Below, piece by piece: positions 12,064-60,457 of a stretch of DNA of 64,000 bases. Position 1 is the stretch's first letter. Each line of letters opens with the position of its first letter. Location of the stretch: positions 3,264,001 to 3,328,000 of the forward strand of contig OY762721.1 of the NCBI GenBank assembly GCA_963666345.1, given 5' to 3'. This stretch comes from Desulfatiglandales bacterium (GTDB lineage Bacteria; Desulfobacterota; DSM-4660; Desulfatiglandales; Desulfatiglandaceae). The notes under the pieces are model-generated. The model was not told the origin of the DNA and did no database searches. It saw only the letters and a program-made list of their open reading frames with translations. A program made the position numbers and the translations under genes.

Positions 12064-12193
12064 AAATAACCAGGCAATTAAGTGCGACTGGCTGTTTTCC
12101 TTGCCGATTGAAATTCAACAGTATCAAAGGTCTTCATACTTTATCGACCATCGGCGCCATTAATCAGCCAGCGCCTTATCGCCGCCGTTGGGC
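12064..12193 (+). other. attC site 1
   Basis: AAATAAC...ggcaattaagtgcgactggctg / cagccagcgccttatcgcc with extrahelical bases...GTTGGGC. Confidence 0.8.
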
Positions 12194-12211: not shown

Positions 12212-13114
12212 ATGAAAAAAATATTTACCATAATGCCTTTCTCTCATGAATTTCGGCAAGTCTACTCAGTGATACAAGCGGCGGCAATGGAAGCAAGCAT
12301 GTCGTTAGGTGATCAAATTGAAATTATGCAAGCAGATGAATCTATTTCCTCAAAGCCAATTGTTCAAACGGTTCTTTCAAGTCTGGATGAAGCGGACTTG
12401 ATAATTGCAGACCTTTCCCATTCTAGGCCAAATGTACTGTATGAACTTGGTGTGGCACACGGAAGGGAAAAACCAGTAATCCTGATAGGCCAAGGGTCAG
12501 ATTCGAGTATTTTTGATATTGCATCATTTTATACCTTAATTTATGACTCAACACGCATCGAGACATCATTTAAACGAAAGTTGTTTAAACAAATTATCGA
12601 TGCCATTAGTAACCCTGAAAAATTTAGCCATCCGTTCTACCGTCAAGAGCAGGGCGATATTCAAAAACCGACAGTTTTTGTTAGTTACAGTCACGCTGAT
12701 GCAGGAAGCCTTACCCGACTTCAAGTCCATTTGAGACCACTTGAAAAAGAAAACCAAATAGAGCTATGGGACGATACCAGAATTGTAGCTGGTGCTAAAT
12801 GGAAAGAAGAAATAGAGGCAGCACTGGAAAAAGCTGCAATTGCTGTATTGCTAATTAGTGCCGATTTTCTAGCATCAGACTTTGTTGTAGATAACGAATT
12901 GCCACCATTACTTCAAGCTGCAGAAGAAAAAGGTACTACAATATTGTCAGTAATATTAAAGCCCTGTCGTTTTTCGCGCGATAAAAATCTCTCTATATTT
13001 CAGGCGATTAATGACCCAAGAAAACCATTGCTTAGCCAGCCAGAACCAGAGCAGGAAGAAATGTATGCTAAGCTGGCAGAAAGAATAGAAAATGAAATCA
13101 ATGCATCAGCTTAG
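12212..13114 (+). CDS. Nucleoside 2-deoxyribosyltransferase-like domain fused to a TIR domain
   Basis: N-terminal IMPF...ADLIIADLS...PNVLYELGVAHG; C-terminal VFVSYSHAD...LWDD...LLISADFLASDF...NELPPLL. Confidence 0.8.
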   Translation: MKKIFTIMPFSHEFRQVYSVIQAAAMEASMSLGDQIEIMQADESISSKPIVQTVLSSLDEADLIIADLSHSRPNVLYELGVAHGREKPVILIGQGSDSSIFDIASFYTLIYDSTRIETSFKRKLFKQIIDAISNPEKFSHPFYRQEQGDIQKPTVFVSYSHADAGSLTRLQVHLRPLEKENQIELWDDTRIVAGAKWKEEIEAALEKAAIAVLLISADFLASDFVVDNELPPLLQAAEEKGTTILSVILKPCRFSRDKNLSIFQAINDPRKPLLSQPEPEQEEMYAKLAERIENEINASA

Positions 13115-13203
13115 TCTGACAATCTCGTTCAGCGGGTAGCGGAAACGTCGGCCAAGATGATGCGGTAAGTTCGGGGCGCCACTTTTGACGAAAAGGGTTG
13201 GGC
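13114..13203 (+). other. attC site 2 (degenerate)
   Basis: GTCTGAC overlapping the stop codon...GTTGGGC; this R' is complementary to GCCCAAC closing the next cassette; inner arms pair poorly. Confidence 0.55.
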
Positions 13204-13219
13204 AAAAGAAGGATTCCAA

Positions 13220-14008
13220 ATGGATACTGCTTTAGGTAATAGACTCATTCAACTCCGTGCTCGAATCGTAGATGGTTTCGATGGAGGTAATTGGGAGGAA
13301 CTCGGGCTGCTTACCGGCACATCGGAATTAATTAATGGTCATCCCCGCCTTTTGAGAAGCCTCTCATGGGGTGATGAAGATTACGCTGGCAACGTTTTAA
13401 CTGTACTGAGGCGGATTGTTGAGCAGGACCCACGAACCTTGACAATCATCGAGAACTACATGGACGAGCACTTTCCAGGGGAATCAACTTACGTATCAGC
13501 CAAACCAGCTGAAAAGCGCATTACATTCGCGCCTTATGTTTTTGAAGTCCCAGATGGGTATGTTGAACTGGACCTGGTTTCCGTAATGATGCCTTTCTCA
13601 GCTGAGTTCACACCGGTATATGAGGCAATTAAACGGGCCACATCAAATTGTCGGCTTCGATGTTTACGCGCGGATGACATTTGGGAAGAGAGTACGATTG
13701 TACAAGATATCTTCAATATTATATTTCGCGCTCAGGTTGTAATTGTTGACTTTACAGGAAAGAACCCGAATGTGATGTATGAGACTGGAATCGCTCATAC
13801 ACTGGGAAAACATGTGATCCCGATTTCTCAATCACTGAACGATGTCCCTTTCGATATGCGCCATCACAGGGTATTGAAATATCTTCCTAACGCTGAAGGT
13901 CTATCAAAACTTTCGACAGATTTAGCTAAAAAACTACGACAAGTGAGTGTTGGCCCTCCATTGTCAACGCTTCCATTAAAGAGTCCAGATGCCGATACAC
14001 CATTTTAA
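13220..14008 (+). CDS. Helical N-terminal domain plus NDT-like domain protein
   Basis: VMMPF...LRADDIW...VVIVDFTGKNPNVMYETGIAHTLGK...VPFDMRHHR. Confidence 0.75.
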   Translation: MDTALGNRLIQLRARIVDGFDGGNWEELGLLTGTSELINGHPRLLRSLSWGDEDYAGNVLTVLRRIVEQDPRTLTIIENYMDEHFPGESTYVSAKPAEKRITFAPYVFEVPDGYVELDLVSVMMPFSAEFTPVYEAIKRATSNCRLRCLRADDIWEESTIVQDIFNIIFRAQVVIVDFTGKNPNVMYETGIAHTLGKHVIPISQSLNDVPFDMRHHRVLKYLPNAEGLSKLSTDLAKKLRQVSVGPPLSTLPLKSPDADTPF

Positions 14009-14012
14009 CAGC

Positions 14013-14077
14013 GCCCAACAATCGGATGAACTTGAGCGGGCAAAACGACGCGCCCGCCAAGTTACCCGTACAATGGC
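14013..14077 (+). other. attC site 3 (R' box disrupted)
   Basis: GCCCAAC; cggatgaacttgagcgggc / gcccgccaagttacccg with two extrahelical bases; no GTT at the expected position. Confidence 0.7.
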
Positions 14078-14259: not shown

Positions 14260-14940
14260 ATGATGTCATGGGATGACTATCACTATTATCAACAAGAAGC
14301 CGCCATGGAAGAATTTCTTGAGCACGAGTTGCGTCGGATTTCCGAAGAGCCAGTGTTTTATTATTTAGCGGCATATGGTGATGCGATCGAAGAGCGCGTT
14401 AAACGCTGCCTAGATCAGGCACAATCCTTGAGTGACAGGGGATACCCTGGTGCTGCTCTCACTCGTGCTGCATCAGGGATTGAAGTAACAATTCGGTTTT
14501 TTTTAGCGCGTCCTCTGGTTCAAGGTGCATTTTTATCGGACGAATGGGCAGAGCTTTTATCTCGGAAATTGTTACACGGCCGTACTGCAGATGACAGAGA
14601 ATTACTCCCTGCCATCCTCCGCAACTGGAAAATGGATATAACCAGTATCAAGTTGTCGGATGGGTCTCAAGCATGGGAACAGATAGTTAAAAAAGTGTGG
14701 CCGAGCCGCAATAGCTATGTGCACAAAGCTGACGACACTTCGAATGAAGACGCTCTTCTTGCTATTGAGTGCCTGAAGATCTTGCTCTCTCAGGTGGTAG
14801 ATCCGATCGCAAAGAAACTTGGTTTCACGCGAGAACAGACTGGGTGTTGGTCAATAGTCAATGTGGAGAATCCCCCGGATTTTCCACATCTAAATTCTCC
14901 ACGGACTTATACCCGACAAGACCCGTTCCTGCCATTGTAA
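14260..14940 (+). CDS. Putative HEPN-domain protein
   Basis: Helical; AALTRAASGIE N-terminal motif and RNSYVH (Rx4H) motif; GGAG RBS. Confidence 0.6.
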   Translation: MMSWDDYHYYQQEAAMEEFLEHELRRISEEPVFYYLAAYGDAIEERVKRCLDQAQSLSDRGYPGAALTRAASGIEVTIRFFLARPLVQGAFLSDEWAELLSRKLLHGRTADDRELLPAILRNWKMDITSIKLSDGSQAWEQIVKKVWPSRNSYVHKADDTSNEDALLAIECLKILLSQVVDPIAKKLGFTREQTGCWSIVNVENPPDFPHLNSPRTYTRQDPFLPL

Positions 14941-14945
14941 GGATG

Positions 14946-15068
14946 GCACAACCATCGGGTGAACTTGAGCGGGTATAAATTGCGGTTGGCGTATTGGGCC
15001 GATTGGCCATTAGATTGGCTTTATATCAAATATTTTCTGAGCAACCCGCGAAGTTACCCGTAACGTTA
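14946..15068 (+). other. attC site 5 (R' split by the group II intron)
   Basis: GCACAAC...cgggtgaacttgagcgggt / acccgcgaagttacccg...GTTA|intron|GGC. Confidence 0.85.
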
Positions 15069-15840
15069 GCGCGCTAAGCGAAGCTAGGTGCATCTTGCAG
15101 GGTTAAAGTCCCTGTCGGGTAAGGGTTAGCCACCCACCCGTATCGAGTGTTGCGCCTGTGGAGGAGACGTGCGAAGCATGTCGAACAAAACAGGTGAAGC
15201 GTACACAGAGAATCATGCAGGCTGTAGGGGAGACCGTGCTCCCTGAAGTGCTGGTATCGCTTCGAGAAAAGCTTGTTCCCGGTCGCCGAGGGTTGTAACG
15301 CACGCCGAACGCAATACAAGATCATCCGTTAAAGGCGAGGATGTGAAGGACCGGCGGAGTTCTCAAGCCGTAGCATGTATGAAGAGATGTACACAAGAAC
15401 TTGGGAGGCCCACTCGACTCCTGAGGTAAATATGGGATGACGATATTGAGGCACGAAGGGGAAACCCGGACACAGGACTATGCGTAGCCCTAAGTTTGAC
15501 CTAAAGCAGGAAGGGGGACCGAAGCGGAAGTGGAGAAACCCTGGTCGTGTGGGAGTCGGATCAGGCATAGTACTCTGAGCGTGGGAAAGCCACGTACACG
15601 CCTTTACTAGGCATGGGGAAGGACCTGACGGAAGTACGCAGCCCGCAAAGGAAACTTATGCCGGACACGCAGGATCGGATTAACATAAGCAAACCTCACT
15701 GTGGGGAATAGCAATGCAGGAATTTAAACGTTAATTAAATTCGCTGTCACGGAAGCGAGTACAACCGAGGAGCCCCGTGAGGGAAAACTTCATGCGGGGA
15801 TCTGTGTGTGTGGCCGGGTAACCAGCATTCCTACCACGAC
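15069..15840 (+). mobile_element. ORF-less group II intron
   Basis: 5' GCGCG (GUGYG-like); domain V gagccccgtgagggaaaacttcatgcggggatc (15770-15802); domain VI ending cctAccacgAC; probable RT start remnant QTSLWGIA at 15690. Confidence 0.9.
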
Positions 15841-15967
15841 GGCTGGCTGAGAAAGTGATATTTATTTTTTTGGTGTAGCAACACATACTTGCGACGAGGT
15901 TGCACTTCGATTTTGGCAAAAAATCAAAACAGGCTTTATAAACAACATAGCCTTTGAGGAGGTAAGA

Positions 15968-16980: not shown

Positions 16981-17052
16981 GCCCAACAAAGGCGTGAACC
17001 AGATTCGAAAAAGCTATCGTTTTTTTCGTCCTGGTTATGCTTGGTGTTCCAT
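16981..17052 (+). other. attC site 6
   Basis: GCCCAAC...aggcgtgaaccag / ctggttatgctt...GTTCCAT. Confidence 0.75.
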
Positions 17053-18971: not shown

Positions 18972-19006
18972 TTGACAAAACCGCCAATCCTGACTAGACT
19001 GACTAG
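18972..19006 (+). promoter_or_regulatory. Sigma70 promoter with probable operator for the TA operon
   Basis: TTGACA-17 bp-TAGACT overlapping a tandem ctgactag repeat. Confidence 0.65.
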
Positions 19007-19029
19007 TGTTAACTAATGGGGGAGGTAAA

Positions 19030-19281
19030 ATGAGGACAACATGGAAATTGCAGGATGCCAAGGCTAAATTCAGCAAAGTCGTTGAGGATGCATTAAAGAT
19101 AGGCCCGCAATTTGTGACTCGCAGGGGCAAAAAGGCAGTGGTTGTGGTCTCTGTGGAGGAATACGAGGAACTCATTTCAACCAAACCGTCTTTCAAGGAA
19201 TTTCTGCTTGGTTGCCCGAAGATGGGGAATGATTTTGAGCTTGAACGGAAAAAGGATCTTCCAAGGAGTATCCAATTTTGA
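19030..19281 (+). CDS. Phd/YefM family antitoxin
   Basis: WKLQDAKAKFSKVV...GPQFVTRRGKKAVVVVS; GGAGG RBS before ATG 19030. Confidence 0.9.
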   Translation: MRTTWKLQDAKAKFSKVVEDALKIGPQFVTRRGKKAVVVVSVEEYEELISTKPSFKEFLLGCPKMGNDFELERKKDLPRSIQF

Positions 19282-19694
19282 ACTATCTACTGGACACCTG
19301 TGTGATATCGGAACTTGTTAAGCCGTCACCGGATGCAAATGTAGTTGACTGGTTGAGCGCCACTCCAACGGAAAGATTATACTTAAGTGTAATAACAATA
19401 GGCGAGATACGAAAAGGTCTGATAAGGCTTCCGGATTCAAGGCGGAAAGTTTTGTTGGCAAATTGGCTCAATATGCTGCTTGAAGACTACCGGAGTAGAA
19501 TCTACTCAATAGATCCGGCTGTCGCGGAAAATTGGGGTACAATTCAAGGAAATGCCGAGAAAAAAGGGAAACCGATGTCTTCACTGGACAGCTTGATCGC
19601 CGCTATAGCCTATACCCACAACTTGATTCTGGTGACCAGAAATGTGCGTGATTTTGAGGCAAGCGACCTCCCGATCCAAAATCCCTGGGCGTAA
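19278..19694 (+). CDS. vapC: VapC PIN-domain toxin
   Basis: YLLDTCVISE, LSVITIGEI, DSLIAAIA, LVTRNVRDF; overlaps the antitoxin stop. Confidence 0.92.
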   Translation: MNYLLDTCVISELVKPSPDANVVDWLSATPTERLYLSVITIGEIRKGLIRLPDSRRKVLLANWLNMLLEDYRSRIYSIDPAVAENWGTIQGNAEKKGKPMSSLDSLIAAIAYTHNLILVTRNVRDFEASDLPIQNPWA

Positions 19695-36854: not shown

Positions 36855-36930
36855 GCCACCGTAGCTCAGATGGCAGAGCACCTCACTCGTAATGAGGATG
36901 TCCGCGGTTCGATTCCGCGCGGTGGCTCCA
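36855..36930 (+). tRNA. tRNA-Thr (CGT)
   Basis: GCCACCG acceptor stem, CCTCA-CTCGTAA-TGAGG anticodon arm, GTTCGATTC, encoded CCA. Confidence 0.96.
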
Positions 36931-59868: not shown

Positions 59869-59934
59869 GCACCCAGTTTTCTTGACCCTTGTATGCCGGA
59901 AACACCCCTGTAACGCCGCAGGGTCCGACAATTT

Positions 59935-60115
59935 TCGAGGCAGGTCTTCTGACTCCCCCGCCCTTTTAGCTGCCTTCCCATCCCGATTTATCGAGACAGT
60001 GGCACACAATGGCTAAAAGAGTTCCCTTTTCAAAAGAAAAGAGCGGGGTTACAGCGGCGGGACCGTTCCCGAATTTAACGGGATTCCCTATTATGCCTTG
60101 AAAGGCACCTCAATT
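59935..60115 (-). ncRNA. Cobalamin riboswitch
   Basis: Minus strand aggtgcc...taatagggaatcccgtt.aattcggga.cggtcccgccgctgtaa...gccactg...gggaaggc...gagtcagaagacctgcc. Confidence 0.93.
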
Positions 60116-60457
60116 ATTATTTGATATTATTCCGGAACTGATGTGTCAAGGGTTTTTTGTAATGGAAGATAATATGCCGGAGGCGGACAATGAAAGTAAT
60201 CAGGGACTCCGGCACGTTATGGTCGATGGTATTCCATCTGTTAGGGCGGTGCTCTAAGGTATGGATAAAATTGCTTGTTGACTTTAAAGGCCTGACGACG
60301 TTATTGATCATATGATGCAGGATGGGTTGTAATCCTCTTTTATTTAGTCCTTGAAATCGGAGATATTTATCTAACTGAGTTCATCTTTTGTCGTAAGATG
60401 AGGTCATTTTTTCTCAGGCCGGCAAGGTCTAATTCTTTTAAGTAAAGAAAGTCTGTA

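Follow-up and report, generated by a model that had tools for sequence, protein, structure and literature searches.

Group II introns have been described at integron cassettes before. In the available text of a 2015 review (PMC4424553), class C is the only class to which attC targeting is ascribed. A later paper by Sonbol and Siam (2021; PMC7923331, in its available parts) describes a full CL1 IIB intron, UHB.I2, in a halophile cassette array and two 5′-truncated class E fragments, H.ha.F1 and H.ha.F2, in cassette arrays, all lying in cassette orientation just after attC or attC-like hairpins, with a role for the hairpin being speculated. The association of IIB/class E introns with cassette arrays is already known from that work. 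Class E/F introns carry α′ at the tip of the DId3 stem-loop, an extra DId3 bulge loop and a 5-nt loop in domain V (DV), according to the accessible part of PMC3753933. Here we describe a 772-nt group II intron without an open reading frame (ORF) that interrupts an attC, sense to the cassettes, in a 64,000-nt stretch (the window) of contig OY762721.1 from a Desulfatiglandales bacterium. Coordinates are positions in this window unless a genome contig is named.

We read the element as an ORF-deleted derivative of an E/F-type intron from an attC-targeting clade, copied with protein supplied in trans, of which the window holds a stranded copy; we give this account as a whole a probability of about 75%. 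The original prediction, made from the letters of the window alone, had recorded an ORF-less, sense-oriented, non-IIC intron in an attC core site. That observation is confirmed, and its interpretation as a distinct attC-homing lineage is supported. Its premise, that described attC introns are class IIC and antisense, holds for the group IIC-attC introns, which occupy the bottom strand (PMC3001079, in the portion seen), and is outdated in view of the sense-oriented IIB and class E elements of PMC7923331.

Ends, insertion point and class of the intron

The intron begins with GCGCG at 15069 and ends with CCUACCACGAC at 15840, the last two bases being AC; length, both ends and the AGC triad of DV, all as predicted, are borne out by the sequence. 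Its domain I (DI) matches the group II intron model RF02005 (group-II-D1D4-6) at 105.2 bits (gathering score 49, E = 1e-28), and RF00029 (Intron_gpII, covering DV and domain VI, DVI) matches 15768–15840 at 32.6 bits, under its gathering score of 40. The claim that the intron is ORF-less on its own strand stands: no plus-strand ORF of at least 50 aa lies within 15069–15840, and the four ORFs inside it (62–83 aa) are all on the minus strand. The consensus is GUGYG at the start and AY at the end; the start here departs from it (U2 to C), and the end reads AC. Because the relatives L037, L038 and L040, which carry a reverse transcriptase (RT), begin likewise, as do two further copies, GCGCG is on this comparison a lineage variant, not a private lesion. 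Among apparently intact RT-bearing copies of the clade, the first five bases vary (GUGCG, GCGCG, UCGCG, GAGCG and UUACG).

A boundary of 15070–15841 can also be read, a G standing at both places. We set the ends at 15069 and 15840 because of homology to an RT-bearing intron in a related genome (L018, G024:C361), which has a GUGCG start and the same 3′ end: its 5′ end GUGCGCCAAGCG aligns with GCGCGCUAAGCG of the window, and CCUACCACGAC closes both introns. In metagenome contigs of relatives, the match starts at 15064 or 15069 and breaks off at 15840; two metagenome contigs cross the 5′ junction of the window copy without any difference.

Excision of the intron fuses GTTA to GGC and gives the predicted perfect R′ box, GTTAGGC, a full match to GTTRRRY. 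The intron-free site is a 126-nt imperfect inverted repeat (123 bases upstream and three downstream) that begins 6 nt past the upstream stop codon at 14940; in it, CGGGTGAACTTGAGCGGGT as the 5′ arm faces CGGGT-AACTT-CGCGGGT and carries two extra bases. A related genome holds an uninterrupted homologue of the same attC (L023, ...AACGTTGGAG), and this empty site, reading ...ACCCTTAACGTTGGAG, fits the reconstituted ...ACCCGTAACGTTAGGC with no base missing. The near-complementarity of the restored R′ to the next cassette's GCCCAAC at 16981, also predicted, extends to six of seven positions, GTTGGGC being the exact complement; R′ boxes of that form occur at 12187 and 13197. Within its own genome, a fuzzy search for the attC arm returned just the two neighbouring copies. 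Intron and flanking ORFs alike are encoded on the plus strand, in agreement with the sense orientation proposed. In the standard cassette model, IntI recombines at G|TT. The insertion point, one base after GTT, lies 3 nt beyond this crossover, so IntI would carry the intron along with the downstream cassette; the earlier proposal to that effect agrees with both junction and model.

The ribozyme traits support an IIB-like intron of E/F type rather than IIC. Throughout the clade the DV loop has 5 nt (GAAAA in the window; GAAAA, UAAUU or UAGUU elsewhere), and in the window the DV hairpin, with its catalytic triad and 2-nt bulge, forms in the predicted fold. Between the first DI hairpin and the terminal loop of the next hairpin after exon-binding site 1 (EBS1) there is a loop–loop pair, UA(G/A)CC with GG(C/U). 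This α–α′ contact covaries over 33 rows (three misaligned rows of 36 were set aside), being G–C in 17, A–U in 13 and G·U in 3, with none incompatible. The window copy is without any intron-encoded protein (IEP); in the 433-aa RT of its relatives, TIGR04416 spans residues 30–396, which leaves no room for an endonuclease domain. The DV triad of the clade is AGC or AAC (for example, L018:3384–3417, L040 and L038), and its second base opposes a purine (G·A or A·G). In other group II introns, G·U is usual at that position.

An attC location would also suit a member of the described group IIC-attC introns. Those introns sit in the bottom strand (PMC3001079, part seen), however, and the window intron is in the top strand, sense to its cassettes; the RF02005 match, a ribozyme of 772 nt, a loop at the EBS2 position and the E/F hallmarks speak against membership as well. 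The chance that this is the already described attC intron type is virtually nil, and we regard that assignment as refuted. The predicted non-IIC, E/F-like identity is upheld by the size, the loop at the EBS2 position and the E/F hallmarks, together with the endonuclease-less RT of the relatives.

RT-bearing relatives and their target

L018 is 92% identical to the window intron over 648 nt, carries the 433-aa RT ORF in domain IV (TIGR04416, 344 bits) and is inserted at GTTG| in an attC unrelated to that of the window. The cognate RT-encoding intron that the original prediction had called for thus exists in G024, and the genome of the window (G000) has none. With the L018 RT as query and one genome per species, 78 loci of relatives were fetched and their intron ends placed by profile searches. 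This gave 36 distinct 5′ junctions, including those of the window and L018; one lacks flank, leaving 35 to be scored. GTT occupies positions −4 to −2 (GTT-N) in 22 of these, mostly as ...CGTTA|, and 13 of the 35 read otherwise.

The EBS1 hairpin loop (15293–15301, UGUAACGCA) complements the last five or six exon bases. It reads UAAC(G) in every GTT-N member, and in re-targeted members both partners differ: CGUACU for AGUACG|, CGCAUU for AAUGCG|, ACUCUU for AAGAGU|, GCAAGA for UCUUGC|, UAAAUG for CAUUUA| and UAACAC for GUGUUA|. This covariation confirms both the intron boundaries and the pairing. Judged from the aligned sequences, the partner of EBS1 UAACG is CGTTR, the five bases that end the exon, and insertion takes place one base after GTT.

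A quick, unrooted maximum-likelihood tree built from 70 RTs groups the GTT-N members within one clade (Shimodaira–Hasegawa approximate likelihood-ratio test, SH-aLRT, 98). Its 26 rows comprise 16 GTT-N junctions, 8 others scattered inside and 2 cut by contig ends. With the tree unrooted, this pattern reads most simply as an attC-targeting ancestor and several later re-targetings. Hosts of the lineage include Delta- and Gammaproteobacteria, Acidobacteriota, Ignavibacteria, Nitrospinia and other groups; among PLSDB plasmids there is no clade member, the best RT identity being 43%. One Desulfosarcina contig from a metagenome-assembled genome (L042:1–6000) has a UCGCG-start relative in a head-to-tail tandem of three or more copies, separated by a spacer of 0 or 1 base, which could be an assembly effect or a real array. 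Relatives of the window intron are abundant in marine-sediment metagenome contigs (runs X3, X4, X5 and X21) and appear in one metatranscriptome library; summed contig depth, which is not copy number, reaches hundreds, and thousands over 15113–15283 in X3.

The sites of the GTT-N members resemble attCs beyond the core word. At each site, the final 32 exon bases were scored for complementarity to the 130 bases preceding them, with 400 random CGTTA sites from the own genome as the control. Among the 19 GTT-N sites with enough flank, 16 reach the control 95th percentile and 10 the 99th (Mann–Whitney against control, p = 1e-8); only 2 of 12 non-GTT sites reach the 95th (p = 0.64). The window itself scores 22, the control 99th percentile being 20 and the control maximum 24. 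Extra bases are in the 5′ arm in 18 of the 22 sites scoring at least 18 (later finds included, five lower-scoring sites left out), in the 3′ arm in 2 and balanced in 2. The longest upstream ORF is on the intron strand at 17 of 23 sites, on the opposite strand at 3 and tied at 3; downstream, the figures are 5, 0 and 5 for 10 sites. A hairpin-energy test with forced AAC:GTT closure separates the sites as a set (Mann–Whitney p = 6e-8), but it is noisy per site and was replaced by the arm-complementarity test.

These data bear on whether the attC location is coincidental, the intron simply targeting a short CGTTA word that occurs in R′ boxes. A demonstrable pairing of only 5 bp and three GTT-N sites without attC arms would accord with such targeting. 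Random CGTTA sites, however, seldom have complementary arms, the GTT-N sites do so far beyond the control, and the extra-base asymmetry is typical of attC, which makes coincidence very improbable. Together, the 22 of 35 junctions, the attC-like arms upstream and the single RT clade sustain the attC-homing lineage that had been predicted.

ORF-less copies and the state of the window copy

Compared with L018, the window copy has lost about 1.27 kb of the RT ORF, keeping the first few codons without the start codon. Two further ORF-less introns are of the same make: L115, 779 nt, on a metagenome contig, and L117 (G086:C39), 753 nt, whose host genome belongs to another family of the window organism's order. 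All three share the deletion junction, the filler, the GCGCG start and an identical DV, and they are 85–88% identical in pairs, with differences spread along the whole length. They stand at GTTA|GGC, GTTG|TGC and GTTG|GAC, in three distinct attC-like sites that differ on both flanks. In run X5 a contig that differs at 18 positions crosses the deletion junction, a hint that the ORF-less form has other variants.

With the crossover of the standard model at G|TT, no shuffling of cassettes can separate the intron from the cassette downstream of it. The differing downstream flanks therefore indicate separate insertions of an element that was already ORF-less, and these in turn imply an RT acting in trans. 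Mobilisation of the ORF-less form in trans is the simplest reading of the three sequences, recombination between intron copies being a less simple one. The latter belongs to an account in which gene conversion or homologous recombination spread the shared deletion among full-length copies already in place, or in which cassettes alone carried the copies about, and the ORF-less form was never retro-mobilised. Physical linkage of intron and downstream cassette fits that account, and in the 3′ part the DV of the ORF-less copies is of AGC type, as against AAC in the closest full-length copy, a hint of recombination. All three downstream flanks nevertheless differ although IntI cannot make that separation, and the copies, while sharing the GCGCG start, diverge along their whole length; we consider the account unlikely. 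The proposal that the element is non-autonomous and mobilised in trans accordingly fares well for the family (three ORF-less copies, one junction, different flanks), with the trans step inferred, and less well for this copy, which is probably no longer mobile.

The window intron is present as a single copy in its own genome (blastn), whose only group II RT is 31–35% identical and part of an RF02001-type intron; the G024 genome has the cognate RT. The candidate branch A, 7 nt before the 3′ end, is present within the motif CCUACCAC, so the predicted DVI with a bulged A (15833) stands as a sequence motif. The helix does not. A 2-nt deletion and substitutions relative to the other copies weaken it, and the minimum free energy of DV+DVI is −24.5 kcal/mol (z −0.67), against −41.3, −41.1 and −40.1 kcal/mol for L115, L117 and L018 (z −4.0 to −4.8). 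With DVI broken, one copy and no cognate RT, we take the window copy to be probably stranded and decaying; most likely it came with its cassette or lost its helper. On the predicted fold it is probably unable to form a lariat, and it may splice by hydrolysis, by analogy with IIE introns, which can do so with no branch (PMC3753933, available part).

That analogy also serves the possibility that the window copy is a working non-autonomous element, which splices from the cassette transcript and is mobilised by a resident RT. Its DI scores 105 bits against RF02005, next to 110–114 bits in RT-bearing relatives, its DV is identical to that of the other ORF-less copies, and EBS1 and intron-binding site 1 (IBS1) are complementary. 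Set against these are the disrupted DVI helix, the distance of the only resident RT and its different intron type, and the presence of just one copy, so a working copy seems doubtful to us.

Other RF02005 matches in the genome were rejected as copies of the window intron, being a different ORF-less intron and a fragment. The former (L002:1470–2140; G000:C1, ~3645125–3645800) scores 182.6 bits, interrupts a Kbl/BioF-like aminotransferase gene, keeps ~70 codons of an RT N terminus and has an EBS1 loop that fits exon CUUUGA|. The fragment (L004, G000:C1:854762–855003, minus strand) is a ~150–240-nt piece of an L002-like domain I (RF02005, ~40 bits) beside a membrane-protein gene. The one group II intron of the genome that encodes an RT is preceded, ~100 nt before its domain I matches (RF02001, RF01998), by a c-di-GMP-I-GGC riboswitch of 70 bits (L009:832–1300; G000:C1, ~2891325–2893030), an arrangement in which the intron may conceivably be ligand-gated.

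Returning to the account we prefer, the element would be an ORF-deleted derivative of an IIB-like (class E/F-type) intron, placed sense in R′ (GTTA|GGC), from a clade that for the most part targets GTT-R| in the attC top strand. The target is paired by EBS1 as set out above. The endonuclease-less RT would use reverse splicing into single-stranded DNA at the replication fork, and some further element, for example the attC hairpin or the protein, would supply the attC specificity that goes beyond five base pairs. A single deletion derivative would have given rise to the 772-nt form and to two or more other diverged copies, placed in different attCs with RT supplied in trans by full-length relatives, and IntI, in moving the downstream cassette, would take the intron along. 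A GC-skew minimum and two dnaA genes lie at 2.14–2.16 Mb; with the origin there, the plus strand, hence the attC top strand, is the lagging-strand template at 3.28 Mb. Endonuclease-less introns are biased towards that template. We infer that the placement suits an endonuclease-less mechanism. Somewhat better than even, in our estimate, are the odds of a wider proposition: an old, phylum-spanning E/F-type clade specialised on the attC top strand, with riding on cassettes, sense splicing, use of the lagging template and ORF-less parasites, independent of the IIC-attC introns.

Several observations weigh against this account. Neither host genome of an ORF-less copy with a genome assembly, G000 or G086, has a cognate RT, the best matches being 35% and 32%. 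No spliced or empty joint (15068 to 15841) occurs in the contigs of four runs, which cannot show absence. Three of the 19 GTT-N sites (L062, L091 and L060) lack attC-like arms; hairpin energy is weak singly, 5 of 60 shuffles of the window site folding as well and only 9 of 19 sites lying under the control 5th percentile. One of the seven positions of the window's R″, GCACAAC, is out of line with RYYYAAC, and several neighbouring attCs have degenerate partners, so the cassette array looks partly decayed. As a set, GTT-N members do not exceed mismatched controls in EBS2–IBS2 pairing (means of 5.05 and 4.73, respectively); clear pairing is seen in re-targeted and some attC members, such as GUGGCU/AGCCAC in L059 (extending to 9 bp), AUGCAA/UUGCAU in L051 and UAAAAAUUA/UAAUUUUUA in L056.

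Genomic setting and comparison with described systems

From ~11.7 to 19.7 kb, in DNA of lower G+C content, every ORF of at least 80 aa with a family match is on the plus strand. An intact integron integrase, IntI (322 aa, C1:1359012–1359980; TIGR02249, 472 bits), is encoded ~1.9 Mb from the window array, and because of this distance the array is like a CALIN (a cluster of attCs lacking an integrase). The coordinates of the intron and its surroundings are collected in Table 1. The cargo of the array, at 12212–14008 and 19006–19694, includes defence-type genes for a TIR plus nucleoside deoxyribosyltransferase-like protein, an AbiJ-NTD5 protein and a Phd/PIN pair. Elsewhere in the window, the Rfam scan found a tRNA gene at 36855–36927 (plus strand, 67 bits) and a cobalamin riboswitch at 59922–60127 (minus strand, 100 bits).

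Table 1 Features of the intron and the interrupted attC in the window
Feature	Position	Strand	Basis or remark
Upstream cassette ORF, 226 aa	14260..14940	+	no Pfam match
Neighbouring attC-like repeat	14013..14075	+	R″ arm (GCCCAAC...) 85% like 14946–14978; R′ degenerate
attC, 5′ part	14946..15068	+	R″ GCACAAC 14946–14952; L″ arm to 14973; 3′ arm 15042–15064
First four bases of R′, GTTA	15065..15068	+	IBS1 CGTTA 15064–15068
ORF-less group II intron, IIB-like, E/F type, 772 nt	15069..15840	+	Rfam and homology to L018, L115, L117
Domain I core	15105..15369	+	RF02005, 105.2 bits
α, AGCC, loop of first DI hairpin	15128..15131	+	covariation with α′
Internal loop at EBS2 position, GAGAAAAGCUUGUUCC	15264..15279	+	window copy without convincing IBS2 partner
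EBS1, UAACG, pairing with IBS1 CGUUA	15296..15300	+	covaries with 5′ exon across clade
α′, GGC, terminal loop of DId3 stem-loop	15334..15336	+	covariation with α
Domain IV remnant: decayed 5′ lead-in to RT ORF, start codon lost	15560..15741	+	comparison with relatives
Deletion junction; filler of ~26 nt	near 15715/15716; 15716..15741	+	comparison with relatives
Domain V	15769..15803	+	AGC triad 15771–15773; 5-nt GAAAA loop; identical in three ORF-less copies
Domain VI and 3′ end	15804..15840	+	candidate branch A at 15833; intron end AC
Final three bases of R′, GGC	15841..15843	+	
Downstream cassette: two overlapping ORFs, 87 and 217 aa	15968..16881	+	no Pfam match
Next attC-like site	16981..17050	+	R″ GCCCAAC, looser arm likeness; R′ non-canonical

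If the proposed account is true, members of the clade ride with cassettes, and their sense orientation allows transcription and splicing instead of a block to the array, while ORF-less 'mini-introns' live as parasites of the full-length ones. Homing at attC would then have evolved a second time, by a different mechanism and independently of the IIC-attC introns, and the lineage would offer a second testable model for the reading of a structured DNA recombination site by retroelements. The expression and shuffling of cassettes in chromosomal integrons would be affected as well, and for attC targeting the ORF-less family might provide a compact scaffold of natural origin.

ORF-less group II introns are reportedly mobilised or spliced with the RTs of related introns elsewhere, for example in a thermophilic cyanobacterium. 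The present family resembles such cases in having kept the ribozyme, lost the ORF and come to need a relative's protein; it differs in targeting attC and in that two of its hosts lack a cognate RT. With the class E/F introns of Nagy et al. (2013; PMC3753933) it shares α′ in the DId3 terminal loop, the 5-nt DV loop, an otherwise IIB-like structure, a small ribozyme, an endonuclease-less IEP, and a crucial EBS1 beside an EBS2 that splicing can dispense with. By their description those introns home to ordinary sequence sites, however, and the available text of that paper reports no attC specificity.

UHB.I2 and H.ha.F1/F2 (PMC7923331) are similarly IIB-type, in cassette orientation and beside an attC or attC-like hairpin in an integron or CALIN, with endonuclease-less RTs and toxin–antitoxin cassettes nearby. 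H.ha.F1/F2 are 5′-truncated, so the insertion point is unseen there, and the accessible text is without a clade-wide target, an EBS1 rule or ORF-less derivatives. In the full-text literature searched, which covers few subscription journals, PMC7923331 was the only account of attC-associated introns outside IIC, and nothing was found on the site within R′, on the EBS1 rule, on conservation throughout a clade and in several phyla, or on the ORF-less family. Relative to these anecdotal IIB cases of 2021, the present lineage would add a defined sense-strand point in R′, a covarying EBS1 rule and members from multiple phyla.

The IIC-attC introns (S.ma.I2 and relatives; PMC3001079, of which part was available) are likewise group II introns with an endonuclease-less RT and attC-specific insertion, and form a monophyletic subset of their own class, as the present lineage does. 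They occupy the bottom strand, run antisense to the cassettes and make use of the hairpin that this strand forms upstream of the site, whereas the present lineage inserts in the top strand, sense to the cassettes, inside R′ (GTTR|RRY), with an IIB-like, E/F-type ribozyme that is almost twice the size and has a loop at the EBS2 position.

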